NCBI GenBank assembly: GCA_951406725.2
Contig: OX597820.1
Location: 120,590,001-120,654,000, forward strand
Reading direction: 5' to 3'
DNA from: Octopus vulgaris
Lineage: Eukaryota
Length of the DNA: 64,000 bases
The position numbers and the translations under genes were made by a program. Shown here in pieces: positions 4,601-59,596 of this stretch. How positions within the stretch are numbered: the first letter of the stretch is position 1; each line of letters starts with the position of its first letter. Below the pieces are notes generated by a model. The model had not been told where the DNA came from. It worked only from the letters and a program-made list of their open reading frames with translations, and searched no databases.

Positions 4601-4689
4601 CTTTCTAATGAGCCTGTGTTCAAGTAGTTATGGCTACCTTCACTAGCTCCTCGAATAGACCCGTAGATGTCTCCCACCCTGCTTTCAAT

Positions 4690-4990
4690 AAAATGTCAGG
4701 CGTATTCTCATCTATCTTTCTGTCAGTGTGAACAGTGAAGTTCCAGACGAGTGAGATGTGATCATTTTCAAGCACTAGATATGGTTTGTGTTCCCATCAG
4801 TTTTTATCATGGGGTAGGTCCAGATTTTTGCACATTATCCAGTGAATATATCGTGCAGCTCTATCATACCTGTTGAGATACTCTGTAGGGGCAAGAAGAG
4901 TGCACGTGGAGACAACATGATCAATGGTTTCATTTTGTTTTTGACATACATATGTTGGGCCACTGTCGTTCTCACATATGTAGGCCTTGG
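4690..4990 (-). pseudogene. R4/Dong-like non-LTR retrotransposon fragment: zinc knuckle and restriction-like endonuclease region
   Basis: My minus-strand translation gives CQKQNETIDHVVSTCTLLAPTEYLNRYDRAARYIHW...*WEHKP..VLENDHISLVWNFTVHTDRKIDENTPDILLK, matching the CCHC-RHD-PD pattern of REL-endonuclease LINEs; contains a stop. Confidence 0.8.
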
Positions 4991-5029
4991 ACTGTTGGGA
5001 AAATTGTATCCAAATATCGGGCTAGAACA

Positions 5030-6130
5030 AGTTGCCTTTGAGACCAAGAGCCCTCCTCAGTATCCTAGCTGTCCCTAATAACACCATTTTGTGTAGCTGT
5101 ACTAAACTGGGCTTTATGCTTATTTCCTCTATCCATCTATTCAGGTCTTTAAGGATAGTTCCAAATTGCAGTCTCTAAGTACAGCTTTGTCTATCAGTTG
5201 ATCCTTGGTACCTCTTCACTTACACGCGCAACCCTTCTGCTCATGTGGCAGGACTCCATTTTTTTATCAACTTTTCATCTGTACACTCTCCATTTATTTC
5301 TTTACATAGTCTCTTCTTATCTACTCTGAATAAGCTATTCTGGCGGTAACCCTTCATTATTTGGTCGTACCTTACCATCCTTTCTTTCTTTGCCACGAGG
5401 TGCTGTTTCAGTTCTACCACTACTACTTTCAAGCCCTTTCTTTCAATATTATTCTTCCTTTTCAGTATCTGAATTTTTGTTCACTTTTAAGCTCTACTTT
5501 CTCTTATCGGTCTAACACGTAGATTTTCTTCGAGAGCATGTCTAACCCTGCCTGGATTCTTCTTTTCCACCATGGATCATTTCTTTTGTCACTCCCATTT
5601 ATATTTCTTTTTCTTGACATCAACACCTACATTTTCTGTTACAACAATACTTGCTGCCTTGATCAAATTATTTGTTTCTGTGATGTTTTTTGTTCTATGT
5701 ATTTCAGAATTGCATTGACATTTTTCGTTTCTTGGTTCGATTTCCATCGGAATAATGTTGCTATCGTTCTCCTGTAGTCTTACCTTTATTCTGTCGTAGA
5801 TTGCCTTCTGTTTATCTGTCATGTCGCTATTAGTTTTATCGTCTTCTTTTAGATCATCGATATTCCTCTCATCAAGTAATCTACTACTGCCCCTTTCCTG
5901 TACTATTGGACTACTCTTATTAGTAAGAACTGTATTTTCATTGTTATCTCTGCTGCGATTGTTCAAGACCCGTCTTTTCAAAGTTTCGAGTTCTACTTCT
6001 GTGAACCAATATTTTTTCTTATTGCTCTCGCTTGATAACATAGTCTCTGTTCCGTGAGTTGAAGCAATCCATTTTCTTTCCAATGGTTATACATACGTTG
6101 ATGGTAACCCCTAATTTGAGCACCATTTTC
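5030..6130 (-). pseudogene. R4/Dong-like non-LTR retrotransposon, internally deleted and decayed ORF
   Basis: N-terminal WFTEVELETLKRRV and RYDQ..GYRQNSLFRVDKKRL; RT motif EQKGC..*RGTKDQLIDKAVLRDC joined directly to C-terminal LHKMVLLGTARILRRAL; frameshifts and stops. Confidence 0.78.
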
Positions 6131-6689
6131 ATCTACCGGGATGCTCAGGTAATAACACTCCATGACCACAACATTAGTCTGCTTGTTCCATCTACGCCGT
6201 GTGTGGTGGTCCTTTCTGGAGCCTGACCAGGATCTCTGAGCCTACCGAGTGTAATACTGCCATCATCGGCTTCAGTTGCATTACCACCGTTAGTCACAAT
6301 ATTTTGTTTTTTTCATTGTCACTCATATGAGGTAGCAATCATCAGGTTGCGCAATTACCAGTGTTTTTATTGTGACACCCTTACTACATGTATCATTAAT
6401 CAGCTCATAAGGAGGAGGAGGCTCCACCCGTTTCCTTTCGTTATTATTATTATTATTATTATCATAATCACTGATATTATTGTTTTTATGTGTAGTAGCA
6501 GCAGTGGTTGCAGCACCAGCAACAGTAGCGTGGGTGGGGGTAGTGTTAAGGATGGTAGTTTTGTCTCAGATACTTGTGCTACCATAATAGTTGCTACCAT
6601 AATAGTTGTAGTATTATCACCACCACTAGCACCACCACCATTGTTTTAGGGAAAAGATGGGTAGCAGTTTGGTGACTAAATCCCATGCT

Positions 6690-6895
6690 ACAGGTCTATA
6701 AATAGATTCGACAGATGGTGGGGAGGTCAGCCATAAAGACAAAGGATTCTTCGCACTCTTTAGGTCAGCAGAGGTCCAATGTGTTTACTACTACCAGTGG
6801 ATATTGGGAGCGCTGCCTTGAAAGGAAGCAGTTCAACCGTTTCTATTTGTAATTACTAGTAGAAAAAAAATATATATATACATACATATACAGAA

Positions 6896-6926
<31 letters not shown>

Positions 6927-8218
6927 CTGATATTCATGTCATTGAAATTTTGAATTTCTGAATTCAATTGTGCTGTTGCAATAAAAGTTGTTTTTAAGTA
7001 TTTGGGTGATGTCCAGTTGGAGAATACAGTATGACTTTTGTAATTAAAAGAATGTTTACATTTTCGAATGCTCAGGGAGAGTCAAAAGGAAAAGAAAACA
7101 AGTTGTAGATAATAAAGTTTTAAGTTACTAAATATGGTCTTTTGTATGACCGCACAGAGAGAAATGGTCGTGTTCTTAGAATAAAAAGGAGGATGATGTT
7201 TACATTTTCGAATACTCAGGGAGAAAGGAAAGTCGTCACGCATTAGTTGTAGATATGAAATTATTAAAAAAATTTTGTTTAAAGCTGATCGTTTGTGTGT
7301 TCGAAAGCTGTAGGTATGTAAGTTTCCTAATTTATTTTATTTTGAGGGAGATTTAAAATATTCACAGGAAATTGTAGATATTCCAGTCTTTGGGAATAGT
7401 AGGAGGAAGAGATGTTCACCTTGATGAATTTTTGAATTTCTGAAGTTATTTTTCTTATTTTTTAAAGTTTTGCTGTGGTTTATAGTTTTTGTAGTTGGGC
7501 AGTATGTATATATATTTTTATCGTGCATTGAATTGTGTTACAATAAAAGACATGTTGACATATTCTGTAAGTCAGGGAAGAATGGAAGACAAAATGTTCA
7601 CACTAAATAAGAGATATTCAAGTTTTTATATTTTTTTTAGGTGTTCGTGTGTATGTCCAAAGCCGTAGATATATAAGTTCCTTAAATTATTTTGAGGCAA
7701 ATTCAAAATACTCACAGAAAACTGTAGATATTCCAGTGTTTTACAGTTGCTTTTTCAGTTGTCCAGCTGGGTTGTATTAGTGTTTCTGTGGCTTCAGCTG
7801 TTGACAGGCCAGAGCAGCGAAGAACAGGTCCAGCCTCTGTCACGTCCAGCCGCTATTATTATCATTATTATTATTATTAATATCACTATTATTACCATAT
7901 TTATTATAATTTCCATTCATTATTGAAAGGTATTATTAAATATTGTTTAGTTTCCAATTTTGTCTTGGATGTGAATGTTTAAGGGAGTAAGTAGGAACAA
8001 GAGACACAGCTTGGGGAAGAGATTATATTCCACAGGTCTGTAAATAGATTCGGCTGATGGTGAAGAGATCAACTATGGGAATTCCTGTGCGATAAAGAGA
8101 CAAAAAGGGTTTCACACCATTGGGGTCAGCAGAGGGCAAATGTGTTTACGACTACTAGCGATCAATGAGAGCGCTGAACTTCGCCTTGAAAGGAACCTAT
8201 TCATCTTGTTCTATTTTT
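6690..8218 (+). repeat. Diverged direct repeat pair (6690-6848 / 8034-8218) enclosing degenerate tandem subrepeats
   Basis: Shared blocks AGGTCT.TAAATAGATTCG...GGTCAGCAGAGG..AATGTGTTTAC...GAGCGCTG...GCCTTGAAAGGAA; internal recurring TTTACATTTTCGAAT.CTCAGGGAG and TGTAGATATTCCAGT. Confidence 0.55.
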
Positions 8219-8379
8219 AATTACTGATAGAAAAAGATATACATACATATATGTACATACCTACATATATATGTATATATACATGCATATATGGGTACAG
8301 GACATAAAAAAAACGCTGAACACAATGAGAAACGAAAACATAAAAAGAAAAACATAGAAATGAACTTTTTTTCAAACAA

Positions 8380-8580
8380 CTGGCAAAATCGTTAGCACGC
8401 CGGGCGAAATACTTAGCAGTATTTCGTCTGTCTTTACGTTCAGAGTTCAAATTCCGCCGAGGTCAACTTTGCCTTTCATCATTTCGTGGAGGGGGCGATA
8501 AATTAAGAACCAGTTTCGTACTGGGGTCGATGTAATTGACAGCCCCCTCCCCCAAAATTTCGGGCCTTGTGCCTAGAATA
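8380..8580 (+). mobile_element. SINE family B, alternative-tail variant
   Basis: CTGGCAAAATCGTTAGCACGCCGGGCGAAAT...GAGTTCAAATTCCGCCGAGG head; tail as at 1456-1655. Confidence 0.8.
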
Positions 8581-8638
8581 CAAAACAAAATAGTATGTCA
8601 TTATATTGTATTGAATTATATTGTTATATATACATTTA

Positions 8639-9052
8639 GGATCTTTTCGGTTTGAACGGCAGTTTTTAACATAATTTCTAGGTAACTAAAAAAATTTAAA
8701 CTTCGTATACTGGTAGAATGTGTTTATAAAACATCTTTTTCTCTTGGCTTTATTGAGAAAATTCTATAGTTTGTAAGATATTTGTTGTTTTTTTTTCTTC
8801 AATTTCTGCAATTTCAACCAATCAAATACGTCTATTGAGGTAAAAAAAAAACATTACGTGCCATATGAATATGTCCCTCGTTTAAGAAACAGATTGGGTT
8901 TATTTACATTTGTGAAGAAAAAAAGATACCCTTCACCCTACCCCTAACCCTAAAACATTGAAATGCAGTAGATCGATACTAGGTTCATAATTATGTGTGA
9001 AAATTTCATATGACACTGCTACAAAAAACTGCCGTTCAAACCGAAAGGATCC
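8639..9052 (+). mobile_element. MITE family A, full copy
   Basis: TIRs GGATCTTTTCGG.../...CCGAAAGGATCC with perfect 8-bp TSD TACATTTA. Confidence 0.92.
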
Positions 9053-9299
9053 TACATTTATAATGCCATCATATTATATTATTATATTATATAATCTAAT
9101 TGAGCCTCGCTATATACGAATATGTCATTCTCTTTTTACAATTCATAAGAGCATCTTAATCATCCATTCGTCTATTTTCCCCCTCCCTTTTCCAAACGCC
9201 ATAACATCTTTCTCTTAGAGAGGTTAGTTTATTACTTCAGTGATTGTATCTGAAGGGAATTTCCACATGAATCTCCCCAGAAGAGAAGAGATCTTTTGA

Positions 9300-9890
9300 A
9301 AGACATCTGAAATTGAAAGCACCAAAAATGCTTCTGGAATTCATAAAAAAAGCTTGAATTGTAATAGAATAATTCACTGGGATTTTGATGCAATGCTCTC
9401 ATTGACAGGAACAGAAAAGTGCCATAAGAGTTTTGTGGTGTAAAAAGTGAACATTATTGGAAAGGGATTGAGATTGTTGAGAATTTCCTATAAAATCCGA
9501 CAAGTCCACTAAGGTCATCAATGACTGGCAAATGTGCCTCGTAAAATCGTGGCGCGGTAGATTGTAAACAGTATAAGAAAGTAATGAAACATGAAATATA
9601 CGAAGGACATAAACTTGTCGGTTTTCCTTGGGGATTTGAGAATTCTGATGAAGAATTTGAGTGTAAAACTCGGAATGTAACATAATAGAAAGAAGTGCAG
9701 AATTCAGCTTTACGGTGATAAAAAAAAATCTAGAATGTTCTACATAGAAAGTAAGGATAAGTATAAAAGGACTGGAGGCATGGTAAAAGGACGAAAAACA
9801 GAATGCGATGTATTCTTGATATCGGCGTTTTCATGGTACGGAGAAGAAGAAGTTAGAAGAAGACAGAAGAAGAAAAAGAAGGAAAACAAC
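9300..9890 (+). pseudogene. Possible highly decayed LINE RT C-terminal fragment
   Basis: GIEIVENFL* resembles the IEVVxxFxYLG RT motif; GAA-rich tail; many stops. Confidence 0.3.
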
Positions 9891-10688
9891 ATTTAATAAA
9901 AGCAATCATATCAGCAGTTACATCTGGGCACAGAATCCACGGGCTCCAATGTTTGGAAGGGATTTACAATCTCGAGAACAGAATGGCTTCTCTTCGAGTG
10001 ACGCTGCGATTTCATTAACACACACACAAAACAATTCATACTTTTCTTTTTCAAATCCCATTTTCAAACAACCGGTTTTTCTCATAGTATATTTTTAAAT
10101 GTATATATTTTTTTCTCCCAACGTATTTTTATATTTTCATTTTATCCGAATACCTATTAAATCGCCACCAAATAGATTTAATAATCGCCCAAACGAAATT
10201 TCAAACCATATTAATGAAAAACATATCGCTAAAGAAAACTTCAAATGAGGAGTATTTACTTCGAATTTTATAAACAACTACCGCGTGCATGAACTACAAT
10301 TGTAATGGTCAGAGTTCCTTCTTTGAAGATATATTACAGTCTTGGTTCATCGAGTGACTATGCTCCCGTTTTGGCATACATATCAAAAGTGAAAATGTGC
10401 CGTAAAATACTGTGTCATTGCATCAGCCTTGGAAACGTTGCGTAGCATTCCTAGGCTTGACAAATGTTCTTTTGTGAAAAATGACCATCATCAAAGGCGT
10501 TTTAACCATGAATATCGCTAATTACACTCAAATATAATCTGTCAGTGACTCCATCAGACAGCTCTTTTATTATTTTTTTTATATGTATGTATAATGGCAA
10601 CATTAAAAGGAGTTTGAGCCATATGAAACGGTCTCATTCGTTGACTCGTCAAAAGCTTTCTTGTCGCATAATGTTACTCTCTATAAGT

Positions 10689-10951
10689 CCTGTGTCATCT
10701 CTTGTGAAAGGTAAGAGAGTCCAGTTTGCTGGACATTGTTGTAGAGCTGAAAAAGAGGTAATTTCTACTCTTCTCCTCTGGAAGCCATCTACTCGCAATA
10801 CCAGAGGGCGCACACTCTCCTACCCTGATGTAATCTCCAGGGATACAGGCATCCAGCAACAGGACCTCCGTAATGCCATGATGGACCGTGAAGTCTGGCG
10901 TAGCATGGTAAATTCCATTGTCTGGACCACGGTCGAACAATGATAATGATG
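10689..10951 (+). mobile_element. 5'-truncated RTE-clade LINE 3' end
   Basis: Encodes RVQFAGHCCRAEKEVISTLLLWKP...RGRTLSYPDVISRDTG...AMMDREVWR (RTE C-terminal pattern); TGA-type tail; flanked by ATAAGT duplication. Confidence 0.8.
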
Positions 10952-11869
10952 ATAAGTGAATATGTCTTCAAATGAAATTTAGAAATAATCTAGGAATAGA
11001 TATATTGATTGTTCGGACTGTATAATGATTTAATGGAGGTTAAAACTAGCAATACAACACTTTCCAATGGATAAGTCTGAGATCAAAATAGAACAGAAAA
11101 ATCTCTAAACAACAGATAATTCAAATATGAGGGAAAAGAACAACCCATAACCTAGGGAAGAGGATCAGGTGAAGGTAATCAACTGTTTGAAGGGATACCA
11201 ACTAAAAGACACAGGGACCGTAACTAATAACATCAACACCACCAACAGACGTTCAAGAATTTGGACCTGCAGATCTCCATTTCCAGCGACTTCGAGGGAC
11301 ACCTCTCAGTGGTGTCGGGCGTCAACGAAGAGCCCTCGACTACAACAAGACGACCAAAGTTTTTTTTTTTTCAAGGTCTGGGGTCTCTTCCGCCGTTAAG
11401 CCTTAGATCATCAACTAATCACCCTCACCCGTCTTGTTGCGTAACAACAACAATAACAACAACACCAGCAACAAAATATGTATGACAAATAACAATCTAA
11501 AAACATCTTCATCAAGAGCGGAAGTTGTCCATGAGAATGACAACAAACCCGTAATGAAGAAGAACTGCAATTAAGAATGTACAAATTACAACAATGCTAC
11601 GATGGAATGGTTGCACTTGCTGCTGTTCTAAGGAGCTTATTTCATCAAAACTGCATAAAACTGCATAAAACTGCACTCATTTCACATTACATGCAAGAAA
11701 AAAACATAATGAAAGATAAACGGAAAATTATAAAAAACAAAAGAAATATGAAAATAAAAACATAAGCAGCAAGAATAACTATTACACACATGACGATGAT
11801 GATGATGGTGGTGGTGATGGAAGGGTTGGCGCGGTGTTGGGGTGGATCAGCTGGTAGTTATGATGGTAT

Positions 11870-11904
<35 letters not shown>

Positions 11905-12054
11905 GTGATTATCTACGTTGTCTTCATCATCATCATCATCGTCGTCATTGTTAATCACGGTAATACTAAAAATATAGGAATAAATCAGTGTGAATTAATT
12001 AACAGAAATTTTAATGGGTATTCATAAACCAGGAAGAATGATAAGGATAATCAT

Positions 12055-12062
12055 AGTCATTA

Positions 12063-12145
<83 letters not shown>

Positions 12146-12182
12146 TTTAATATTATTATTATTATTATTATTTATTATTATT

Positions 12183-12213
<31 letters not shown>

Positions 12214-12256
12214 CTATTATTATTATTATTATTATTATTATTATCATTATTATTAC

Positions 12257-12289
<33 letters not shown>

Positions 12290-12303
12290 CAATATTATTA
12301 TTA

Positions 12304-12357
<54 letters not shown>

Positions 12358-12394
12358 TTATTATCATTATTATTACTATTATTATTATTATTAA

Positions 12395-12430
<36 letters not shown>

Positions 12431-12511
12431 TATTATTATTATTATTATTATTATCATTATTATTACTATTATTATTATTATTATCATTATTATTACTATT
12501 ATTATTATTAC

Positions 12512-12568
<57 letters not shown>

Positions 12569-12664
12569 CATTATTATTACTATTATTATTATTATTATTA
12601 CTTATTATTATTATTATTATTATTACCATTATTATTACTATTATTATCATTACTATTACTATTA

Positions 12665-12701
<37 letters not shown>

Positions 12702-12881
12702 TATTATTATTATTATTATCATTATTATTACTATTATTATTATTATTATTATGATTATTAATATTATTATTATTATTATTATTAATATTATTATTATTAT
12801 TATTATTATTATTATCATTATTATTACTGTTATTATTATTACTATTATTATTATTATCATTATTATTACTATTATTATTAC

Positions 12882-12917
<36 letters not shown>

Positions 12918-13007
12918 TATTATTATTATTATTATCATTATTATTACTATTATTATTATTATTATTATCATTATTATTACTATCATTATTATTATTATTA
13001 TTATTAA

Positions 13008-13053
<46 letters not shown>

Positions 13054-13212
13054 ATTATTATTATTATTATTATTATTATCATTATTATTACTATTATTAT
13101 TATTACTATTATCATTATTATTATTACTATTATTATTATTATTATTATCATTATTATCATTATCATTATTATTATTATCATTATTATTATTATCATTATC
13201 ATTATCAGTATT

Positions 13213-13310
<98 letters not shown>

Positions 13311-13320
13311 CATCATTATT
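12055..13320. repeat. Long interrupted (ATT)n microsatellite
   Basis: ~1.26 kb of ATT with ATC/ACT/AAT variant units. Confidence 0.97.
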
Positions 13321-13364
13321 AGCATTGTGACAATATTATTATTAATCACTGTTATCATTAATAT

Positions 13365-13411
13365 GGATATGATGATAGTGATGACAATGATGATGATGAT
13401 AATGCTGCTAC

Positions 13412-13466
<55 letters not shown>

Positions 13467-13799
13467 AATGATGAAGCTAGTGGTGTTGGTAGCAGTGAGG
13501 ATACTGAGGCTGATTTGGAGTAAGTGTAGTGATAACGAGAGTAATGACGATGTCTGTGAATGTCGTTCAGTTTCATGCAGGCGTTGTTGATCTCCCTTCA
13601 TTACTTCCTCGTGCACACTCAGATGACGACGACGGGGCCCGATGGCGACGAAACAACGATTGCTGCTGCTGTTGTTTGTTGCCGAAAGAAATTGACGGTA
13701 AGTAGCGATGAACGTCGCTTGGTTGTTGTCGTTGTGATGGTGATGGTGATGATGACGATGATGATGATGATAATAATAATAATAACAATAATGATGATG

Positions 13800-13831
<32 letters not shown>

Positions 13832-14353
13832 GAGGATGATGATGATGATGATGACGATGATGATGGTGATGGTGATGATGGTGCTGATGATGGTGATGAT
13901 AATGATGGCGATGATGATGATGATGATGATGATGATGACGATGACCATGACGATGATGATGATGGTGACGATGATGATGATGATGATGACGATGACCATG
14001 ACGATGATTAGGATTATGATGATGTTGATGATGATGATGATGGTGGCCCTGCTTTTCGAGATGTTGAAAATTCCGGTAGTGATAATTATAAGTATACCTG
14101 TGATAGAACTAACGACGTTAACGAGAATGATGATGATGACAATGATGACGATGAGGAGGGGGAGGAGGTAGAGGGGGTAGATTAGTAGCGCAGTCGAGGA
14201 CGAGGACGGCGATGATTATGTCGATTGAGTGTGGCGAGGATGGTGACCGGGAGAACGAGGGGGCTAATGATGATGATAATGATGATGTCACTAATTATGC
14301 AAAAATTTTGACGGTGGTGAGAATGGTTGCGGCGATGCAGATTGTGGTAAAGA

Positions 14354-14387
<34 letters not shown>

Positions 14388-14425
14388 GGTGGTGATGATG
14401 AAAATGATGATAATGATGATGATGC

Positions 14426-14471
<46 letters not shown>

Positions 14472-14484
14472 GGTGATGATGATA

Positions 14485-14542
<58 letters not shown>

Positions 14543-14811
14543 CGACGGTGATGTCGGTGATGTCCTACGCGATGCTGACAGTGCTGACTGAGAATCGATC
14601 TGCTGCGGGAGAAGCAACAAACCATTCCATCATCAAGTGTCAATCAGTGAGAATAGAGATTTCAGTAATGAAGATAATGAGGCTGGTTGTTTACGGCCTG
14701 CTTCATTGAAGATGGCGATAATTGCAGCGATTTAGGCTGATGAAGCAGTCATCACAACCACGACAACGGCGGCGGCGGCGGCGGCGAGAGGCAATAACGA
14801 AGAGACGCAGG

Positions 14812-14846
<35 letters not shown>

Positions 14847-15020
14847 CCATTGCCAGAGCTGTGCTGGTGATAATGCTGTTTGCGATGGCGTCAAAGACGA
14901 GAATGATCACAAAGAGGCAAGGAAGGGAATGATGGTGGAAGTGATGAAGGAAGTGTTTTCTTGGCTAGGGTGGCGGTTATAATTGTGTAGATACACGTAT
15001 TGATGATGATGATGATGATG
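13365..15020. repeat. Interrupted (GAT)n / (GGT)n / (GCT)n low-complexity block
   Basis: Trinucleotide runs separated by short unique GC-richer segments. Confidence 0.9.
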
Positions 15021-15097
15021 ATTAACAACAACAACAACAATAATAATAATAATAATACTAATAATCATTATTATCATTATAATTATTATCATCATCA

Positions 15098-15189
15098 TTA
15101 GTAGTAGTAGTAGTAGCAGTAGTAGTGGTGGTGGTAGTAGTAGCAGCAGTAATAACAGTGGTTGTAGTAGTAGCAGTAGTAGTAGTAGT

Positions 15190-15242
<53 letters not shown>

Positions 15243-15293
15243 CAGAAGCAACAACAGTAGTAGTAGTAGTAGTAGTGGTATTAGTAGTAGTAA

Positions 15294-15338
<45 letters not shown>

Positions 15339-15377
15339 CAGCGGCAGTAGCAGTAGCAGTAGTAGTAGTATTAGTAA

Positions 15378-15410
<33 letters not shown>

Positions 15411-15468
15411 CAGCAGCAGCAGCTGTAGTAGTAGTAGTAGTAGTATTGTGATGATGATGATGATGATA
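15098..15468. repeat. (GTA)n/(GCA)n microsatellite
   Basis: Seen directly in sequence. Confidence 0.95.
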
Positions 15469-16684
15469 ACATAAATGACGATTGCATTGATGGGAAAATC
15501 ATGAATAAGTCAGATTGGCGATATCGAATATATTTTTACTGTTATTGCTGCTGCTGCTGCTGCAGATGAAGATGATCACGATGCTATTGATAATGATGGT
15601 AATGATAATCATTATCATCATATTCATCATCATTATCGACATAATCTTCATCGTCAGCAGGCGCAGTTCCGTATATGGTGCAGGGTGCTTTACGCGGCAG
15701 TCAAAATATTTTCCCATTCTATAGACAATAGGAACCAAAGACATTACTACGTACATACAATGAGGGGAAACAGGACTCTTTTGTGAGGAACGACAACAAA
15801 CTCGAACATATTGAATAGCATGAATCCCATTTAGAACATGAATCGGAGGGAAAAAATCATTGATTCTGCACAATCAGATAATATTGATAGGATGCGGTGA
15901 CATAGCAAGAAAATTTAAATTATTTAAACAAATAAGTAAATAAAAAAGATATGGGATAAAATCAATGATTCCAGCTTTATTTGTATTTTTTGGATATTTA
16001 TTCCAATACTCAACAACATGGAAGGCATTCGAGTTGAAATATATTGGATCGAGAATCTGTAAGACCTGTTGTCTCAATGCAAATGTTGCTGTATTACGAA
16101 AATGTTACCAAAGAAAGTAACAAAAGTTACAATATATGGTAATAAATTTGTTAGAGAATAAACGTGTATTTCTCATAAAGATTATTTTAAATAAATTTTG
16201 GAGGAAATATTGCGTTTAATTATAGTTTCACGTCAACAAATATTAACAGATAAATTCCCAAATCAGCATGATATATGCTACTGCACGGTAGAAAATTATA
16301 TTTGTAAATTAAAATTATTGCATCTGAAAGAATATAAGTACAGTGTCGTTGCGATAATCATATTCCATCCCTGATACATACAGGAAGGCATGAGCAAAAA
16401 TGTTTCAACGACATGAATGTAGAATTAATAAAAACCGAAAAGCGAATGATTAGAGTATCTAATGCCGCGTAATAATGGTCTGTTTTGTTTAAGGAACTAC
16501 AGCTTCAGTTTGAGTATAATCATTATAGTAGCTTTATTAACCTGGTCAGTCAAGTCTACAATAAATAGATTTACCATGGACTTTCTGACAAACGTGACAG
16601 TCCCGTAAGGGAATTACACCACCGCCATTTAGCCCTAGGAAACATCGACGTTTCCTGTCGGCTTTAACACATTTCCTGTGTCCT

Positions 16685-16827
16685 TATATTTGCAAAGGGG
16701 AGGCAATCATCCCCGCCAGCTGGGACTAAGCAACTGAAGACGTATGTTTCTCAGTGTATTGCTCGTCATCAGTCCAGGGTATCAAGTCTCGCTCGCTGAA
16801 GATGACTGCAACCTCTCTGCAAATATA
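16685..16827 (-). ncRNA. Putative type I minimal hammerhead ribozyme at the apex of a long hairpin
   Basis: Minus strand reads CUGGA-CUGAUGA-cgagcaauacacuga-GAAAC-auac-GUC-UUCAG; stem I CUGGA/UUCAG extends into ~55-nt imperfect arms; stem II weak. Confidence 0.6.
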
Positions 16828-16967
16828 TTCTATTTTCAGTAAACTTTATTTACTGATCACCAAAATTAGAAATTTCTAATTTCTGACAAAGTTTTGTTAT
16901 ATTTTTTCTCTGTAGTTTCAGTTCAGAGCTGCAGTCATGCGGATGCACCATCGTTAAATATATTGAA

Positions 16968-17066
16968 CAGTCTATATATTGAATTAGTCTATATATTAAT
17001 TAGTCTTTATATGAATCTATATATAGTCTATATATGAATATAATGAATTAGTCTATATATGTCTAC
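16968..17066. repeat. Degenerate AT-rich minisatellite (AGTCTATATATGAATT-like)
   Basis: Several AGTCTATATAT units. Confidence 0.6.
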
Positions 17067-17206
17067 ATCATGCGATATATTCAAGTCCGGAGTTTATGCC
17101 TCATGCATCCTTCAAGGCGAATGACCGTTCACACGCCTCTCCTGCTGGTCACGTTTAGCTAATATATATAGCGCTGGACATTATACAGAAGTAGTTATAT
17201 TTACAA

Positions 17207-18113
17207 CTAGCAGTATCGCCCGGCGTTGCTCGGGTTTGTAAGGGAAATAACTATAAACCATTTTTAGAGAGTTATAGCCAAAAAATAGCAAAACATTGCA
17301 TTAAAAATGGAAGAAAAATTATGGTAAATTATTTTTTAAATCGTTGACTCATCGTAGACATTTTTAGAGAGTTACTTCCCTTTATTTGAAAAAATATGCC
17401 TTAAAATGGAAAAAGATTATGGTAAATTATTTTTAAAATCGTAGACTCATCGTAGACGCGCGCTAATACCCAGAAGGGCTCGATATGAATCACGACTATA
17501 CGATACCCGGATTTGGTTAAACTACACCGAAAAATGTGGGAGTAGTTAGGAATCTAAATCGTAGGAGACAGACACTCACACAACTTCATTTTTACATATA
17601 ACTATCAGTATCGCCCGGCGTTGCTCGGGTTTGTAAGGGAAATAACTATATAAGCATTTTTAGAGAGTTACTTCCTTTATAGATGCCAATTCGGGCTTTC
17701 TTAGCCATTTCTGTTTTAGTGTCTTCAAGCCATGAAGTCGTTCTAAAAGAACGCTGGTCTCCTTGACAACGCATTACGACGTTGATTTCCTTACACTCCC
17801 TTCCCCACAGCTTCACGAGGGAGGGAAAAAGGGGAGAAGCAAACAGGTGCAGGTGTGACCATGGACGCCAACTCCGCCGCCATCGACACACGAAAAATTA
17901 TGCATTAAAATGGAATAAAAAATGATGTTAAATTATTTTTAAAATCGTAGACTCATCGTAGACGCGAGCTAATAGCCAGACAGGCTCGATATTAATCACG
18001 ACTATAAGATACCCGAATTTGGTTAAACTGCACCGCAAAATGTGGGAGGAGTTAGGAATCTAAATCGTAGGAGACAGACACTCACACAACTACAGTTTTA
18101 TATATATAGAAGA
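17207..18113 (-). mobile_element. Tandem pair of non-autonomous Helitrons
   Basis: Minus strand begins A|TCTTCTATATATATAAAAC and ends CCCGAGCAACGCCGGG hairpin + CTAG|T; internal second terminus at ~17602. Confidence 0.85.
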
Positions 18114-18773
18114 TTAATAGAGTCGGTTCAATGTTCATGGGTCAAACTGAGTGTGATAGTGGACTTAATACTGCTGCTTCTATTGGTTATGGTAGAATTC
18201 AACATGGTATAACGCAAGAATATTCAAAAATAGCCGTAGTGGTAGTTACAATGTTGTATGTTAAAGATCGAGGATAGAAGAAAAGAAAAAAATCTTAGTC
18301 GCAAAGAGATCATGGGAGAGAAATTCCAATTAAGTCATTCCTATCAGCTGTTTTCGTTCTAAACTTCTGAGAAAGAATACACAATTATTTTAAGAAAAAT
18401 CCGTCGCGTCTAAACGTACCGCTAGAATTATGATTGCACGGAAGGTTATTTCCTTTTTTTTTTTATTTTATATATAATGTCTACTAATGATTGGTGTATC
18501 GATTTACGTCTATATCTTTAAATTACCTCTTTCTTTCCGATATGTATACATGTAGCATGTACGTACTCACACCTGCCCGCCCGCGCGCGAGCAACACACA
18601 CACACACATACGTAAAGACACATATACGTACACACAGACACGTACACACCACGCACGCAAGTACCATACATGACAGCATGCAGCCACGCACGCATGCAGA
18701 TCCATTCATCCCTTCATAACCATGCGTACATCTATTTCTCTATTTCTCTCTTTCTCTCTCTATATGTATGCAA

Positions 18774-19020
<247 letters not shown>

Positions 19021-19443
19021 ATCACACGTGTGTGCTTGTATGTGTTTATGTATCTATTTAAAGATTACGTGCAGAGGGCTGCTGCGAGTAGATGCACAAA
19101 TCTACGTATGTTTGTATACACGAAACACACTTTTAAATTCCACTTATTTCGATTACACCAGGTCATCATAGCTTGATTTCCATGAATAATGTCAACTTGC
19201 CCTTTTCAAATATAGCCGAATATTATTGCTCCTAGCAACCGGCTCATTAGTCATCCGCCAAACACTAAACCCACAACAATTAAACTACATAAAAATGTAA
19301 CCAGATTATACCAACCTCACCGTAACACCCACAGCTTCACCTTCACTATTGCAAAACCCCTTCGTAGTTTTACCTCCAAAATATTCACACACTTGAAGCA
19401 ATTATATTCGAAGGAATTTTTAATCCTTTACCTGCACTTCGGA

Positions 19444-19540
<97 letters not shown>

Positions 19541-19685
19541 GCAGAAGAACAAGAAGGAAGAAGAAGAAGAAGAAGAAGAGAAGGGAGAGGAGGAGGAAAA
19601 TGAGAAGTAGTAGTAGTAGTAGTAGTAGCAGCAGCAGCAGCAGCAGTAGCAGCAGCTAAAGAAGACGAAGAAGAAGAAGACAAGG

Positions 19686-19717
<32 letters not shown>

Positions 19718-19890
19718 GAAGAAGAAGAAGAAGAAGAAGAAGAAGAAGAAGAAGAAGAAGGAGGAGAAGGAGGAGGAGGAGAAGAAAGAAGAAGAAGAAG
19801 AAGAAGAAGAAGAAGAAGAAGAAGAAGAAGAAGAAGAAGAAGAAGAAGAAGAAGAAGAAGAAGAAGAAGAAGAAGAAGAAGAAGAAGGAA
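19444..19890. repeat. Compound (ATG)n-(ATA)n-(AGT/AGC)n-(GAA)n microsatellite
   Basis: Seen directly in sequence. Confidence 0.97.
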
Positions 19891-20518
19891 GTGGAAGTAA
19901 AACAAGGAGTAAAGAAGAACAACAAGAAGAAATAAGAAAGATAAGAGAGAATAAAAAGTAGATGAAGAGAGAAAATGAATTTGAGAGATTTACCTGTTAT
20001 TGTTAAAAGTTTAGATGCTATAAATAGCAAACTCAGAAACCAGATTAAATTGAGAATAAGATATGAAGGCAATATTACCTCGAACTGTACGAATCCATCA
20101 CAGACTCCTCGAAATTAGAGTGGAGAGGGTTAGCGTTGTCCACTGATTGTCAACAGCTAAACTCTGATACGTTCTCCGGCGAATTTCTTTTAAGAAGACG
20201 ACGATGATTATGCTGATGCCTGAAACAGAGTATATGACCCTGAACAAGACGCAACCATCTGGGATATCTCTGTTATAACAAAAAAAGAAATCCAGAAAAT
20301 GCGCCCCTGATAGACATCGGAAGATAACTTCAATAATATCATTTCACAGAGCTGCTACAACTGCACTAGAAAAACAATTTGCCAAAATAAATGCAAACCA
20401 GGAAGCGACGCAAGTATAGCACAGTCTGAAGAAGTCTGGCATAACGAAATTTCAAAGCCACCTTCGCCCTTATTATAAACGTTATATGTGTGTGACTGAG
20501 TATGTTCATATGCATGCA

Positions 20519-20579
<61 letters not shown>

Positions 20580-21120
20580 GTGCTTAATGTCCGGGCATTG
20601 CTGACTTTAGGGTTATGCTCAATAGTTGCTACAATGTGTAGGAGGGACCTGTCGGTCGACCGAGTCTGTCGTAATGATTTCATCGCCAGCCTCTTTCAAT
20701 CAGGCCGGCAAGGCAGTTTTATTTTGCCCTGTGGCTGTGCCGAAAGAGGTTGTTTGGTGGACAAAGCTGAACGGGAACAGGACAAATACATTTCTCTTTG
20801 GTTGAGCTCTTATTGACTTCTTCAAGTTTCACTTGAAAAGAAAAATGAGAGTAAACAGTGAAGTGCTGTCCTGGAGTGAGTTTATTGGAAGTCGGGTGAA
20901 AGTTGCGAAAATGGCAAGAGTAGATGGTACCACTAAATATTGGCCTGTGAGTCGGGGAGAAGGAATTTCAGGGGGCACTTGCTCCTGGGGTTTCAGGGAA
21001 ACCTCGGACAGTGAGGTCCCTCGATTATCCCTAAAGGCTTTCCTGTATTAAGAGGGCCACAACTCTATCATCTTCCCCACTCTTTTTGTTTTAAACTTCT
21101 GTATGTTACGCCTATGTCCT
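20580..21120 (+). pseudogene. Probable L1/Tx1-type LINE ORF2 3' end, decayed
   Basis: GC-richer island; translation KEVVWWT...NTFLFG*ALIDFFKFHLKRKMRVNSEVLSWSEF..RVKVAKMARVDG resembles Tx1-like ORF2 C-termini (family call from memory). Confidence 0.45.
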
Positions 21121-21277
21121 TTCGCTTTCAGTGTATAGAAGTGCTTACTTCCTTTCTTTGTTTTTTTTTTCTATTTTCTATCATTTCATTATATGTACAC
21201 TCCTACACTTTACGTCTGTCATTGTATTGTCCCCTCATATTTTGCTCTTTTGGAAGATAATTGAAATCCTCCCCCTC

Positions 21278-21291
21278 CTCATCATCATCAA

Positions 21292-21323
<32 letters not shown>

Positions 21324-21324
21324 A

Positions 21325-21357
<33 letters not shown>

Positions 21358-21374
21358 CATCATCACCATCGTCG

Positions 21375-21408
<34 letters not shown>

Positions 21409-21461
21409 TATTATTATTACCATTATCATTATTATTATTATTGTTATTGTTGTAGTTGTTA

Positions 21462-21525
<64 letters not shown>

Positions 21526-21576
21526 TTATTGTTATCATCATCATCATCATCATCATTATTATAATTATTATTATTA
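21278..21576. repeat. (CAT)n/(ATT)n microsatellite
   Basis: Seen directly in sequence. Confidence 0.95.
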
Positions 21577-21621
21577 TGCTGTTTAACTGAGTAGTGGACC
21601 GGTTAAATTGCTCCAGATGTG

Positions 21622-21812
21622 AGTGTGTGCGTTTGTCTCACTAACTCTTGCAAACCGGTGTTGTAGTGTTTATGTCCTGGTAAATTAGCGGTTCAACAAG
21701 AGAACTCCAATAGAATACCTACCAAGATTAAACACTAAACACTGTTTCACTAATGTTATTTAAGGCGGTGACCCAGCATGGCCGCATTGTAATGACTAAT
21801 ACAAGTTAAAGG
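21622..21812 (+). mobile_element. SINE family C, degenerate 3' half
   Basis: TTAGCGGTTC...AAGGCGGTGACCCAGCATGGCCGCA..AATGACT matches the family C tail. Confidence 0.6.
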
Positions 21813-22344
21813 TAGAAAATTATGCGAGAATCTTACTTGATGGCACTTGGTTTTTTTTCCATTTCACAGACGATTTAGACCAGCAAATTGAACATAAGCC
21901 GTAATTTTCATGTTGTTACCTTATAGATGTTATCTGGTCTGTACTTCGTGGGGTATGGTTCTTGTTACTGTAGATTTGGACCTCGTCTTCATACATACAC
22001 ATGCACAAACACACGCACACTCACTCACGCACACACACATACACACAAACGCATATATATACATGTATATTTATGAGATTTGTATACCATGTATGCCTGG
22101 CTTCGTGTGCGTGTCAGCGTGCGCAATTTATAACAGTCTAAATAAGTAAATATATCAGTTGAAGGCATTGCAACATATAAATAGATATGAAGAATGCATT
22201 TAAAACATTAAAGTGACACCCATGTTTCTATTAAACTGATACATATATGCGCGTCTGCGTATGTGTCTGTAAGTACATGTATATATATATATATATGCAT
22301 TTACAGATACACGTATACATGCAGATATATAAATATACTTGCAT

Positions 22345-22521
<177 letters not shown>

Positions 22522-22846
22522 GACAATTTCTATATATATATATATTCACCTCTGATCCGACCGAGTAATTATTTTGAATGAAACAAAATTATATAATTAT
22601 CTTTGATGTAATTACCTCCATTTAATTATCTGAAAGCTTCACGAAATTGACATTATTTTCAGATTATAACTTCAACAATCCCAGATATGTAGGTACAATG
22701 AGTCATTTCCATTCCGCTATTCTTGTTTTTGTCCTGACCAGTTAATAATTTAAGTCCATCTCTCTCTTACTCATTGTGCACCATCGACTTACTTTCAAAA
22801 TCTCATTTATTTCATCCTTTCAGTGCCCAGGCAACTTTAACTGAAT

Positions 22847-22978
22847 ATCTATTATATAAAATCCGTTCTGTCTGTCTGCGTGTGTGTCTTCTAGGATCGC
22901 GGGCATTCTCCATCCGATTGCGCTCAAATTTGATATGTAGATACCGACGGTATGAGGGCGTGTATAAGTCTTGAAAAA
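22847..22978 (+). mobile_element. Helitron-like 5' end fragment
   Basis: A|TCTATTATATAAAA...CTGTCTGTCTGCGTGTGTG...CCGATT..CTCAAATTTG parallels the 5' end at 39219. Confidence 0.45.
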
Positions 22979-23599
22979 GTCTATCTTTATTTCTTCTTTT
23001 GCTGCTGTCTCAAAGTTAGGTTAAATCAGTGTTTTTCAAAGGGGAGGCCTATGGGACGGTCGGGCAAGTTGTTTTGAGAAAATTTGGTTTAAATGTTTGA
23101 CAACTCAGCACCATCCATTGGACAGGGGGCGTTTTGCTCGTCGTTATATATCTTTGTTTTTTTGTCTTCAAAGTATTTGTACATTGCTTCATGCATAACT
23201 ATTTTCAATACAAAGAAAAAAGCCACTTATATTTCTATCATTGTCAGCTGTGACTCGTTAAAAAAATTGGCCATATTTTAAGTCCCCGCATGTCATCTTG
23301 CTGGATATTAAATTGCTGAAATTATTCTCCCAATCTATTCTGATTATAGAATGTATGAGTTAGTGAGATATATTTTAGGATTTTACAAGTCGATAGTTAA
23401 CCCGTGCATCGTAATCTAATCAGGGGTATATGTGAACATAATAATTAGTAAAAATATATATGTACAATTCCATAAATGGCATTGTTAATTTAATATATGA
23501 TAAGCATACGCACGTATAATTATATATTGCATGCATATACATACATACATACATGCGTGTTTCAGCATATCAGTTATGTAACTATATATATGATTGACC

Positions 23600-23790: not shown

Positions 23791-23995
23791 AATATACACA
23801 CAAGCACCGCGCGCGTATATATTAGCTTCACTAGTCATAAATCCTGTCACTGTTTGGTATCTTTTGTCTCAGAACTCTCTGAGATAACGGTATTTTGGTT
23901 CAACGACGCCCTTCGACGTGTTGTTCCATTCAAAAGGATTGGAACTCTCTTTCAGTGTATGTATGTAAGTGAAAATGTTTGTGTGCACGAGTGTC

Positions 23996-24428
23996 GGATC
24001 TTTTCGGTTCGAACGGCAATTTTTTCTAGCGTTGTCAAATGAAATTGTCACCCATAATTATGACCCTAGTATCGATCTATTGCATTTCAATCTGTTTTAG
24101 GGTTAGGGTTATTTAGGGTTAGGGTTAGGGGTGGGGGAAGGGTATATTTTTTGTTCTCAAATGTAAATAAAGCAAATCTGTTTCTTAAACGAGGGACATA
24201 TTCATACGGCACAGAATGTTTTTTTTACCTCAATAGACGGCAGTGATTGGTTGAAATTGCAGAAATTGAAGAAAAAAACATCAAATATCTCACAAACTAT
24301 AGAAATTTCTCAATAAAGCCAAAAGAAAAATATGTTTCATAAACACATTCTACCAGTATACGAAGTTAAAAAATTTTTTAGTTACCTAGAAATTATGTTA
24401 AAAACTGCCGTTCAAACCGAAAAGATCC
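23996..24428 (-). mobile_element. MITE family A, full copy
   Basis: Both TIRs; TSD CGAGTGTC/CGTGTGTC (7/8); internal TTAGGG repeats. Confidence 0.92.
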
Positions 24429-24810
24429 CGTGTGTCTCTATGAACGTATTTCAAAGACGTTATACCTGTATTCATACTAATATCTCCGTACATACTGATT
24501 ATTTGATAATCGTCCATTTGTTCACCGCTTGTATTTAAAATACATCGCTGTGTAATTTATCACAGCTCAGTCATTTTCTTTCTTGTTGTTCGCCTCCGGT
24601 TCGGTGCCTGTCAAGTGGAACTTAAAAATAAAAAAAAAAAAACGTTCATTATTTTGACCATCGTAACGTATCAAGACATTTACAAATAGTGCAGAAGAAC
24701 ACTAAATTGAATAATTTCGTTATAATTCTTTTAAATACCTAATTCCTGATCAGATAGAATTATGTGTCTAAATCCTTTTTTTCAAGATTATCTCATTTTT
24801 ACTTTGTGAT

Positions 24811-25195
24811 CTGAAAGCACTCCGTCGGTTACGACGACGAGGGTTCCGGTTGATCCGAATCAACGGAACAGCCTGCCCGTGAAATTAACGTGTAAGTAGC
24901 TGAGCACTCCACAGACACGTGTACCCTTAACGTAGTTCTCGGGGATATTCAGCGTGACACAGAGAGTGACAAGGCCGGCCCTTTGAAATACAGGTACAAC
25001 AGAAACAGGAAGTAAGAGTGAGAGAAAGTTGTGGTGAAAGAGTACAGCAGGGATCACCACCATCCCCTGCCGGAGCCTCGTGGAGCTTTAGGTGTTTTGC
25101 TCAATAAACACTCACAACGCCCGGTCTGGGAATCGAAACCACGATCCTATGACCGCCAGTCCGCTGCCCTAACCACTGGGCCATTGCGCCTCCAC
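24811..25195 (-). mobile_element. tRNA-derived SINE family D, full copy
   Basis: tRNA-like head with A/B boxes (TGGCCCAGTGG, GGTTTCGATTCC); 11-bp TSD TACTTTGTGAT. Confidence 0.9.
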
Positions 25196-25799
25196 TACTT
25201 TGTGATACATATTCTGCATTTACAGATTCAGTGTCAAATTCTCTAGAATGAATTCTTTTGGACTTCATGATGAAATTTTTTGTGCGCTTTTCTGGAAAAT
25301 AAATTATTAAAAAATTGTATGGTGAGCTTTTTTTATAGCTATCTTTATAAACAGCTGCTTTAAAAAAATTGCAAAAATAAAGAAAGATATGATATATTAT
25401 GCGTCGTTCGTCTCTTCATATTTATATTTAAAAATCTATGAATATTATATGAATATGAGGTCGAAGAGTATCCGTTTTCTATATTTTAAATCCCTACGTT
25501 GTTATATATTTAACATTCCACAGTAAGCTTCTGACGCTGCTTTCAGAAACTACTTTTCTAATAAGCTTATTTTATTTTCTTTCAATTGGAAGAGTGTGCT
25601 GTTCCTCACAGCCCTATTAACATATAAACTACAATACATATACTGAAAGCAAAACTATAGCCTTCAATATCAAGCATAATTTTCAGTGCTTAACATCGAA
25701 TGAATTAAAGTTCAAAATTCAGGATGACAAACCACAAAGAAAAATTAAAAACAAGGAAATTCTTTGAAGATTTGGTTTGTTATATTTTTGAGAATTTTG

Positions 25800-26217
25800 C
25801 GACCTTTTCGGTTTGAACGACAGTTTTTAACATAATTTCTGGGTAACTTTACTGGTAGAATGTGTTTATAAAACATATTTTTCTCTTGGGTTTATTGAGA
25901 AAATTCCATAGTTTGTAAGATATTTGTCGTTTTTTTTTCTTTTAATTTCTGCAATTTCAACCAATCAGTGACGTCTATTGAGTTAAAAACCATTCTGTGC
26001 CGTATGAATATGTCCCTCGTTTAAGAAACAGTTTGGGTTTATTTACATATGTGAAGAAAAAAAGATACCCTCCCCCACACCTAACCCTAACTAATCCTAA
26101 TTAACCCTAACCCTAAAAGAGATTGAAATGCAATAGGTCGATTCTAGGGTCATAATTATGGGTGACAATTTCATATGATAATGCTAGAAACAACTGCCGT
26201 TCAAACCGAGAAGATCC
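25800..26217 (+). mobile_element. MITE family A, full copy
   Basis: TIRs; TSD GAATTTTG/GAAGTTTG (7/8). Confidence 0.88.
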
Positions 26218-26690
26218 GAAGTTTGAAAAGTAGAAATATGTACCAACAAAATCTCATATTTTGCTCAAGAACTTGCCGCACTTGAAAAATTAGCCGGTTC
26301 CTCCTGTTCAAAACGATTAATACCACTTTCCAGACGTTCAAGTTTTTCTATGTAGCTGTCTAATGCTAAATAACTATAAGCAGGAATTGCACATTGATCC
26401 AGAAAATTTCCATGTACGTTAATGATATGTGTGAGCATCTGAAGACACTTATAAAATAAATAATGACAAATGACCTGTGTTTATGCAAAAGTAATGTGAT
26501 GTGATTTAGACATATAAACCTTTGTGCTGTGGCTGGAGATGCGGTCTGTGAATGCTTGTGCTGCTTATTAGAGATGGCGTGATAAATGAGAAACTGCTGC
26601 TGTATATGTGACAGAACCTGCGAGATATCTACCAAGATTATCACATGCACATATATGACATTGTTGTTGTTGATGTTATTGTGGTTGTTG

Positions 26691-33857: not shown

Positions 33858-33898
<41 letters not shown>

Positions 33899-34082
33899 CT
33901 AGCAGTATCGCCCGGCGTTGCTCAGGTTTGTAAGGGAAATAACTATAAAGCATCTTTAGAGAGTTATAGCCAAAAAATAGCAAAAAAATGGAAAAAAAAT
34001 GATGGTAAATTTTTTTTTTGAGAGTAAAAAACGAGAAAACAGAAACACAGAAACACGCACAGACAAACTGCCGTTTATATAT

Positions 34083-36115: not shown

Positions 36116-36489
36116 GTGAAGGCACAATGGCGCCACGGACTTACGGTCGTAAGATCGCGGTTTCGATTCCCAGACCGCGCGTTGTGAGTGTTTATTAAGC
36201 GAAATCTCCTAAAGCTCCATGAGACATCAGCAGGGGGTAGTGGCGAACCCTGCTGTAATCTTACACCACAACCGTCTCTCAGACTTTCTACGTGTTTCTC
36301 TTGTTCCTGTATTTCAAAGAGCCAGCGTTGTCACAATCTGTGTCAAGCTGAATCTCCCCGAGAACTACGTTGAGGGTACACGTGTCTGTGGAGTGCTCAG
36401 CCACTTGCACGCTAATTTCACGAGCAGGCTGTTCCGTTGATCGGATCAAATGGAACCCTCGTCGTCGTAACCGACGGAGTGCCACCACG
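36116..36489 (+). mobile_element. SINE family D
   Basis: Homology to 24811-25195; TSD ATTCACATTGA. Confidence 0.88.
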
Positions 36490-39592: not shown

Positions 39593-39635
39593 TATATATA
39601 TATATATATATATATAGGTAGCTACCCAGCTGGCT

Positions 39636-48167: not shown

Positions 48168-48251
48168 CAGAGAAATTTACGAGGCAGGTTGTCTTTAAAT
48201 ATTTAAAAATAGAAAGCCTAAGCAAATCCCAATACATTCTCAACTTCACTA

Positions 48252-59557: not shown

Positions 59558-59596
<39 letters not shown>

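Follow-up and report, generated by a model that had tools for sequence, protein, structure and literature searches.

The repeat copy and its limits

The window, a stretch of 64,000 nucleotides of Octopus vulgaris DNA, holds a copy of a repeat family, read on the minus strand and composed of a 5′ domain, a long rod with a hammerhead at its tip and a 3′ domain (Table 1). Contigs of four of the 24 listed public runs (X1, X7, X12 and X18, X7 being of a different organism from X1) were mapped to positions 16266-16955 at 80% likeness. Words of the stretch are present in 20 of the 24 listed runs, and the runs span four organisms and ten studies. In X1, the contig depth over the left flank is 49-70 (with one bin at 116). 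It reaches 170,000-589,000 over 16588-16702, 4,400-12,300 in the hammerhead bins and 10,000-23,000 over 16818-16886. The same profile is found in X7, over a flank depth of 8.4, and the contigs of X12 and X18 cover the repeated parts alone. Relative to the unique flank, the 3′ domain is 8,758-12,004 times deeper in X1 and 9,080 times in X7, the 5′ domain 341-467 and 324 times, and the hammerhead bins 66-251 and 22-87 times; only the orders of magnitude of these figures hold, as summed contig depth, which is raised where short contigs overlap and does not include diverged copies, cannot be read as copy number.

Table 1. Positions of the repeat copy, its parts and a further interspersed repeat in the window.
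Feature	Position	Strand	Basis
One repeat-family copy, 294 nt, 43% G+C, no long reading frame	16591-16884	-	Depth jump from 49-70 to >10,000 (X1); loose ends at 16591 and 16884
Left copy of exact 11-bp direct repeat, likely target-site duplication; 2-nt overlap with the element	16582-16592	.	Repeat search
Right copy of 11-bp direct repeat; 5-nt overlap with the element 5′ end	16880-16890	.	Repeat search, depth limits
A+T-rich 5′ domain: 20-nt palindrome (16863-16882), hairpin (16837-16855) with two-sided change 16851/16841	16828-16884	-	Fold, contig differences
Long imperfect rod, hammerhead at tip; diverged rods in its place in sister subfamilies	16685-16827	-	Folds, joints, loose ends
Type I hammerhead: proximal stem I, internal loop, distal stem I; predicted cut 16739/16738	16724-16788	-	Pattern, family letters at 16733, 16742, 16752, 16782
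First conserved box CUGAUGA; N7 at 16768 variable in relatives (27-71%, three runs)	16766-16772	-	
Stem II and 7-nt loop II (CAAUACA); 2 bp here, 3 bp in most relatives, C-A closing mismatch	16751-16765	-	
GAAA box, 2-bp stem III with 4-nt loop, GUC; self-complementary in most relatives	16739-16750	-	
3′ domain with several hairpins, also present in sister subfamilies of much greater abundance; two-sided change 16651/16642	16591-16705	-	
~420-bp interspersed repeat, eight copies	440-857, 8636-9052, 23994-24429, 25795-26221, 47755-48169, 52988-53400, 54680-55104, 56160-56583		

The original prediction had placed the element at 16578-16827, which missed its 5′ part, and was to fall if the sequence proved single-copy; by the depth over unique flank in the runs, the stretch is multi-copy. 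The two ends of the copy lie in an 11-bp direct repeat, likely a target-site duplication, whose short overlaps with the element are as would be expected of junction microhomology. Of 9029 window positions, 17 have a shared 11-mer at comparable spacing, and 92 do if low-complexity words are included. At the 5′ end, the 20-bp palindrome is perfect and lies at multi-copy depth. At the other end, relatives run beyond 16591 by a median of 17-29 letters in all four runs (with a consensus up to 30), many of them reaching at least 17-30 nt further 3′; the window copy therefore lacks a 3′ tail. An insertion common to organisms A and C is not established, as contigs cross the left junction for only 17-28 letters, 31 being required.

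The depth at 16887-16955 was considered as part of the element and rejected, being that of a decayed piece of another window repeat. This piece (16891-16957) directly abuts the hammerhead element and belongs to a ~400-bp SINE-like family, with copies near 27496, 28962, 31671, 43028, 44675, 51856 and 53619. In X1, a joint at 16659-16744 is seen in one contig at the single-copy depth of 29.1, in which most of the 3′ arm of the rod is replaced by a shorter, similar piece. This contig has the window copy's letter at 16733 and may be a deleted allele of the locus.

The non-coding retroelement of the original prediction stands in so far as the stretch is multi-copy, with many related copies in the runs, and has no long frame. 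However, no second copy was found in the window by blastn, none of the four joints listed for the four runs goes back to form a tandem joint (a repeat of so many copies yields short contigs), and the contigs of these runs show no circular junction. In X18, three contigs continue for 74-274 letters beyond the 3′ end, and none of them re-enters the 5′ domain. Downstream, the likeness of 16581-16280 to a second monomer was equalled by 0 of 300 and 0 of 500 shuffles under lax scoring, and by 1 of 1255 real tiles (lax) or 1224 of 3166 (strict). The sequence concerned, whose likeness is faint and in tandem register, has single-copy depth in the runs; it could be a very old relative, or the likeness could be due to chance. 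An upstream monomer was rejected: there is no signal, and 229 of 300 shuffles are equally good.

The hammerhead in the window copy and in its relatives

On the minus strand, CUGAUGA (16772-16766) is followed by 15 nt and by GAAA (16750-16747). Stem III has 2 bp and a 4-nt loop, the GUC triplet has its C17 at 16739, and stem I of the window copy has 5 bp. The boxes, the 2-bp stem III and the GUC triplet of the original prediction are thereby confirmed at 16772-16739, and the core positions lead to the same predicted cut. All numbered core positions match CUGANGA, GAAA and NUH in type I order. In pattern scans, this core is the single instance in the whole 64-kb window and is present on one strand only. 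Shuffling gave a core with a stem I of at least 5 bp in 8 of 200 locally shuffled windows, and of at least 4 bp in 18 of 200; a stricter hammerhead pattern was met in 1 of 100 shuffles. Because shuffled windows also yield cores, the core taken alone is only moderately unusual.

The Rfam hammerhead models, which had been proposed as a check, gave no match for the window copy either at the gathering score or up to E 10. More generally, Rfam returned no credible family: 46 weak matches in 14000-19500, three in 16500-16900, and none at the gathering score. Look-alikes of box C/D, SECIS, pistol, twister, RNase MRP and 7SL RNAs were considered, and Rfam has no match for any of them.

The rod, with its arms of ~55 nt, folds as predicted. 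For 16560-16850, z is -5.85 on the minus and -4.10 on the plus strand, and 0 of 200 shuffles equal either strand; for the whole unit, it is -6.37 and -6.05. Aligned with each other, the arms have 38 Watson-Crick columns, five columns that are G-U on the minus and two on the plus strand, eight transversions and three gaps, and the minimum free energy folds contain five (minus) and six (plus) G-U pairs. The earlier claim that the G-U pairs of the minus strand reflect selection is thus weak within the copy; it is the family variation described below that speaks for it. Among the further hairpins that had been pointed out, UCCC/GGGA and AGGAAAC/GUUUCCU exist. GGACU/AGUCC, on the contrary, is not a family feature, because it uses 16578-16582, which is single-copy flank and direct repeat outside the repeated unit.

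The window letters at 16733, 16742, 16752 and 16782 are in the minority in X1, X7 and X12, where another letter has 87-100% of the depth. In four cases of four, the majority letter completes a pairing: stem I gains its sixth base pair, loop III becomes palindromic, stem II gains its third base pair and one more pair forms in distal stem I. Helix I has 6 bp with a letter carried by 99-100% of the depth in three runs, and loop III is fully self-complementary in 99-100% of the depth in three runs, where the stem-loop III of the window copy has two mismatches in eight dimer pairs. The poorly paired stem II, read before as a possible sign of inactivity, does have one pair less than in most relatives. 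By a rough hand count, only ~7% of the possible single changes in the core stretch would complete a pair, so that four of four by chance is very unlikely. The catalytic core itself varies, among the differences listed, only at N7, the free position; the constancy of the other core positions is not significant alone, few positions being variable among these differences.

Outside the rod tip, 17 differences were counted, without 16703-16725 (where the sister subfamilies dominate) and without two rare rows (16624, 16625). Eight lie in loops, four make up two double-sided changes, three retain a pair, as G-U, on the minus strand only, one turns a G-U into a G-C pair and one breaks a marginal pair. 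The double-sided changes were read from per-site shares in contigs, not from aligned full copies: the shares at 16651 and 16642 vary together in the four runs (0.58/0.65, 0.91/0.92, 0.97/0.96 and 0.80/0.85), and the two changes of pair 16851/16841 come at an identical depth in three X12 contigs (68.5) and three X18 contigs (35.2). There are also changes of the opposite kind. A difference at 16783, in 13-34% of the depth, breaks a pair of distal stem I, and in the single X18 contig over the core, stem III is broken. The majority letters that complete pairs, the variation at N7 and the two double-sided changes so indicate that the RNA structure of the family, on the minus strand, is under selection, the window copy having decayed. 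As for a family lacking the core or covariation, against which the original prediction was to be held, the relatives keep the core, and two base pairs change on both sides.

These data also bear on a reading in which the stretch is a single-copy inverted repeat, an exon or a host regulatory structure (for editing or splicing) with a hammerhead-like core by chance. The cores found in shuffled windows, the good folding of both strands and the splice-like sites that flank the stretch would suit it. However, the stretch is a high-copy repeat whose majority letters complete the hammerhead, stops interrupt all six frames of the region, and A>G and T>C differences are equally common in the DNA-type run and in the RNA-type runs. 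This reading is largely refuted by the contig mapping and can hardly be credited; the exon suggested by the splice-like sites was rejected for its stops and repeat nature.

The C-A mismatch at the base of stem II (10.1-11.1) is without change among the differences listed and seems to be family-wide. According to the accessible part of PMC3088659, 10.1-11.1 is the most conserved helical pair after 15.1-16.1; as it is highly conserved in natural hammerheads and yet C-A here, the family may cut poorly. A U-U at this place occurs in natural hammerheads (PMC7229834 and PMC3088659, in the portions available), and for C-A no precedent was found in the hammerhead literature searched, part of it accessible as excerpts. 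Rather than a "minimal" hammerhead, as first proposed, the family motif fits better the canonical metazoan type I, which is described in the available text of PMC4209133 with a 6-bp helix I, an internal loop, a helix II of ~4 bp and a short palindromic helix III.

Most of the depth over the 3′ domain comes from relatives with a different rod, whose loose ends at 16702-16714 lie in register with the window rod. One such loose end of a sister subfamily (nine contigs, agreement 0.67) has the cleavage triplet and the UGC after it in matching register, beside a stem I that differs. At two X18 joints, the two outer domains are retained and the part between them is unlike that of the window copy. A hammerhead is thus probably present in the larger family as well.

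Origin and movement of the family

A multi-copy retroelement with a selected hammerhead is, on this evidence, very probable. The fuller interpretation, which we favor as fairly likely, is that non-coding, retrozyme-like elements, moved by Penelope-like elements, form an abundant family in octopus, of which the stretch is a lone insertion in partial decay. Retrozyme transcripts are described, in the part of PMC7229834 available, as self-cleaving, closed by tRNA ligase and thought to be moved by Penelope-like elements. In O. vulgaris, 31 recently active Penelope-like families have been reported (PMC13282606).

In this family, intact source transcripts would be cut after GUC, probably best as dimers held by the self-complementary loop III, and a contact between loop I and loop II would aid cutting. 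From tandem units, cutting would release unit-length RNA, to be closed into a circle by a host ligase, as for the retrozymes of mussel, coral and axolotl. A Penelope-like reverse transcriptase-endonuclease would recognize the structured 3′ domain, and copying, started inside this domain at a nicked target, would leave dispersed and often 5′-truncated copies. For the window copy, target-primed reverse transcription would have begun inside the 3′ domain, and pairings would have been lost since; its last few dozen bases are missing, and four changes around the core break pairings. As a lone unit with a best fold 10.5 kcal/mol more stable than the hammerhead fold, this copy probably cuts little. 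It is probably an inactive or slow, dead insertion without host function.

The copies are 3′-anchored. Depth decreases in the 5′ direction, and at 16674, 16687, 16714 and 16725, contigs of X18 pass from the family to dissimilar sequence; several relatives seem to be dispersed and 5′-truncated, within a mapped stretch that stops at the window copy's own 5′ end, beyond which the family may reach. Such anchoring would also suit a 5′-truncated end (pseudo-LTR) of an autonomous Penelope-like element whose hammerhead trims its own transcript, an origin that is the main alternative, though an unlikely one. The 3′ tail absent here fits the Penelope pattern in the same way: the Penelope enzyme starts inside the RNA 3′ end at two sites, which gives an optional tail of 30-40 bp (PMC11167929, in the part available). 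The accessible portion of 10.64898/2026.07.22.740005 also states that Penelope insertions are mostly 5′-truncated and have a single terminal repeat, and that pseudo-LTRs and retrozymes are related; some Penelope elements have a small palindromic helix III or canonical hammerheads. On the other hand, most metazoan Penelope hammerheads in the excerpts of PMC4209133 are of the minimal form, lacking helix III and having 7-8 bp in helix II and 4-5 bp in helix I, which is not the case here, the whole unit is strongly self-paired as in retrozymes, and there is no coding remnant within or beside the copy. Four short motifs were also absent from one supplement of PMC8557442, a metadata sheet and, hence, a weak test. 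The main difference between a retrozyme-like element and a truncated Penelope end would be a reading frame in the longer copies.

Across the four runs, depth over the 3′ domain exceeds that of the core bin by a factor of 125-421. The peak-to-core ratio is 191 in X12 and 176 in X18, runs whose RNA nature is only guessed, and 125 and 421 in the other two, which speaks neither for nor against expression. The imbalance between 3′ domain and core could be that of a tail of a SINE or LINE (RTE, Dong-R4 or similar) that mobilizes the domain, the hammerhead rod being a module of some subfamilies. The 11-bp duplication and the 5′ truncation are, in general, compatible with insertion driven by LINEs. 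Many unclassified SINE families exist in octopus (PMC13282606). However, the major sister subfamily has loose ends that match the register of the rod to within a few bases of the cut, one set reaching the triplet, the window copy has no poly(A) or simple-repeat tail, and no tRNA-like or other Rfam head was found for the element. A SINE or LINE tail is, therefore, an improbable origin.

Less probable still is an RNA circle copied from RNA to RNA in the manner of viroids, as source or product of the family, with genomic copies as reverse-transcribed relics. The rod-rich fold, the size near 300 nt and the strong variation between subfamilies with pairing kept recall such agents, and for mussel retrozymes, RNA-level replication was raised as one possible cause of heterogeneity (PMC7229834, in the portion available). 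The label "viroid-like" of the original prediction is nevertheless not retained: the ribozyme core is present on one strand only, the family is massively present in DNA, the contigs of the four runs contain no circular junction and no match was found in viral contigs. A first motif of the hammerhead element gave no matches in viral, prokaryote and metagenome collections, and a second gave none in viral contigs. A match of the second motif in one contig present twice (L001, L002) was rejected as a chance 26-bp match in a bacterial kinase-like frame. It is exact, between L002 699-724 and window 16668-16693.

A bolder form of the favored interpretation, which is rather doubtful, would be that of an undescribed, still-active family of thousands of copies, with a fixed 3′ recognition domain, exchangeable ribozyme-tipped rods, a natural C-A variant at the base of stem II that standard searches miss, abundant circular RNA and rods that serve as substrates of A-to-I editing. 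Octopuses are known for heavy A-to-I editing.

Known hammerhead elements and further features of the window

The metazoan non-LTR retrozymes, of which the nearest studied host is Mytilus galloprovincialis, share with the octopus element, as far as the available part of PMC7229834 goes, a type I hammerhead, a non-coding and multi-copy nature and strong self-pairing. Their size of 150-450 bp, G+C content below 50% and target duplication of more than 4 bp are shared as well, the octopus copy with its missing tail staying within these ranges, and no LTR, PBS or PPT is seen in either. In the axolotl HHR_Amex2 of the same source, the base of stem II is also mismatched, with U-U instead of the octopus C-A. 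In contrast to these retrozymes, the octopus copy is solo, no tandem array was found and several relatives are apparently 5′-truncated; its hammerhead tips a rod with ~55-nt arms that is exchanged between subfamilies. Octopus does not appear in the main text of PMC7229834, as available.

Penelope pseudo-LTRs (excerpts of PMC4209133, PMC8557442 and PMC11167929) likewise have a structured 3′ region with a type I hammerhead on its upstream side, 3′-anchored truncated copies, an optional 3′ extension and a palindromic helix III. The octopus motif differs in being canonical-like, in its G10.1-C11.1 pair, absent or shifted by one base, and in the lack of a linked RT or GIY-YIG frame at the locus. 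An Octopus Naiad is tagged "HHR_half_core" in the accessible part of the PMC8557442 supplement.

Solo monomers are not foreign to retrozymes. In the part of 10.64898/2026.07.22.740005 available, the share of dispersed monomers in a family is anywhere from 0-100%, such monomers, which the solo octopus copy resembles, are interpreted as dead offspring, and eight of nine natural copies tested were without cleavage. The families of that study were, however, defined from tandem copies, of which none was found in octopus, and no mollusc was sampled. The hammerhead of Schistosoma mansoni, in the available text of PMC2632901, likewise has a stem I internal loop with U first and C last, facing a loop II that runs from C to A. 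Its loop II has 6 nt (CAAAUA), one fewer than in octopus, where the loop contact is inferred. In giant squid, 235 Hammerhead_1 matches of Rfam were counted without assignment to elements (PMC6962438, as excerpted), whereas the octopus copy is missed by Rfam. Further related papers, accessible in part, are PMC11662667, PMC7761336, PMC4758252 and PMC5680766.

Comparison with these systems indicates that the octopus element seems to work like a metazoan non-LTR retrozyme or a Penelope pseudo-LTR, of a kind already known, in a family apparently undescribed in octopus. Neither "ribozyme" nor "hammerhead" occurs in the text or supplement of the 2026 O. vulgaris repeat paper (PMC13282606). In agreement with the earlier suggestion of an undescribed family, no description of an octopus hammerhead element was found in the literature searched, mostly open-access and without Repbase and Dfam; the family may be catalogued under another name. 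With it, cephalopods join the animals with a traceable hammerhead retroelement, and a concrete family is at hand to be mined in octopus assemblies. The shared 3′ domain, the subfamilies and the active Penelope-like elements could together serve to test which RNA structure is recognized by a Penelope protein, and whether retrozymes come from pseudo-LTRs in animals other than vertebrates could be examined in the family as well. Should the C-A variant cleave, animal ribozymes are undercounted in hammerhead censuses that rely on Rfam or require a strict stem II.

Several other repeats are present in the window. The ~420-bp interspersed repeat has copies of 80-93% identity. A repeat of ~385 bp lies at 24812-25196, 36136-36482 and 57190-57576, with two copies 97% identical. 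At 17196-18106, and again at 33862-34018 and 39474-39615, a repeat with internal duplications ends in a short G+C hairpin followed by CTAG, an end that we take to be like that of a non-autonomous Helitron. Broken PIF1 helicase frames at 59499-60669 on the plus strand (Pfam PF05970, PF21530) are probably a decayed Helitron. Several broken frames at 4797-6241 (minus strand), with no Pfam match, presumably recall a non-LTR retrotransposon of the R4/Dong type. On the plus strand, an open frame of 130 amino acids (58658-59050) has 65% identity to a CCHC-domain protein of Octopus bimaculoides, its only homologue among 501 candidates, and is possibly a gag-like or ORF1-like transposon remnant.
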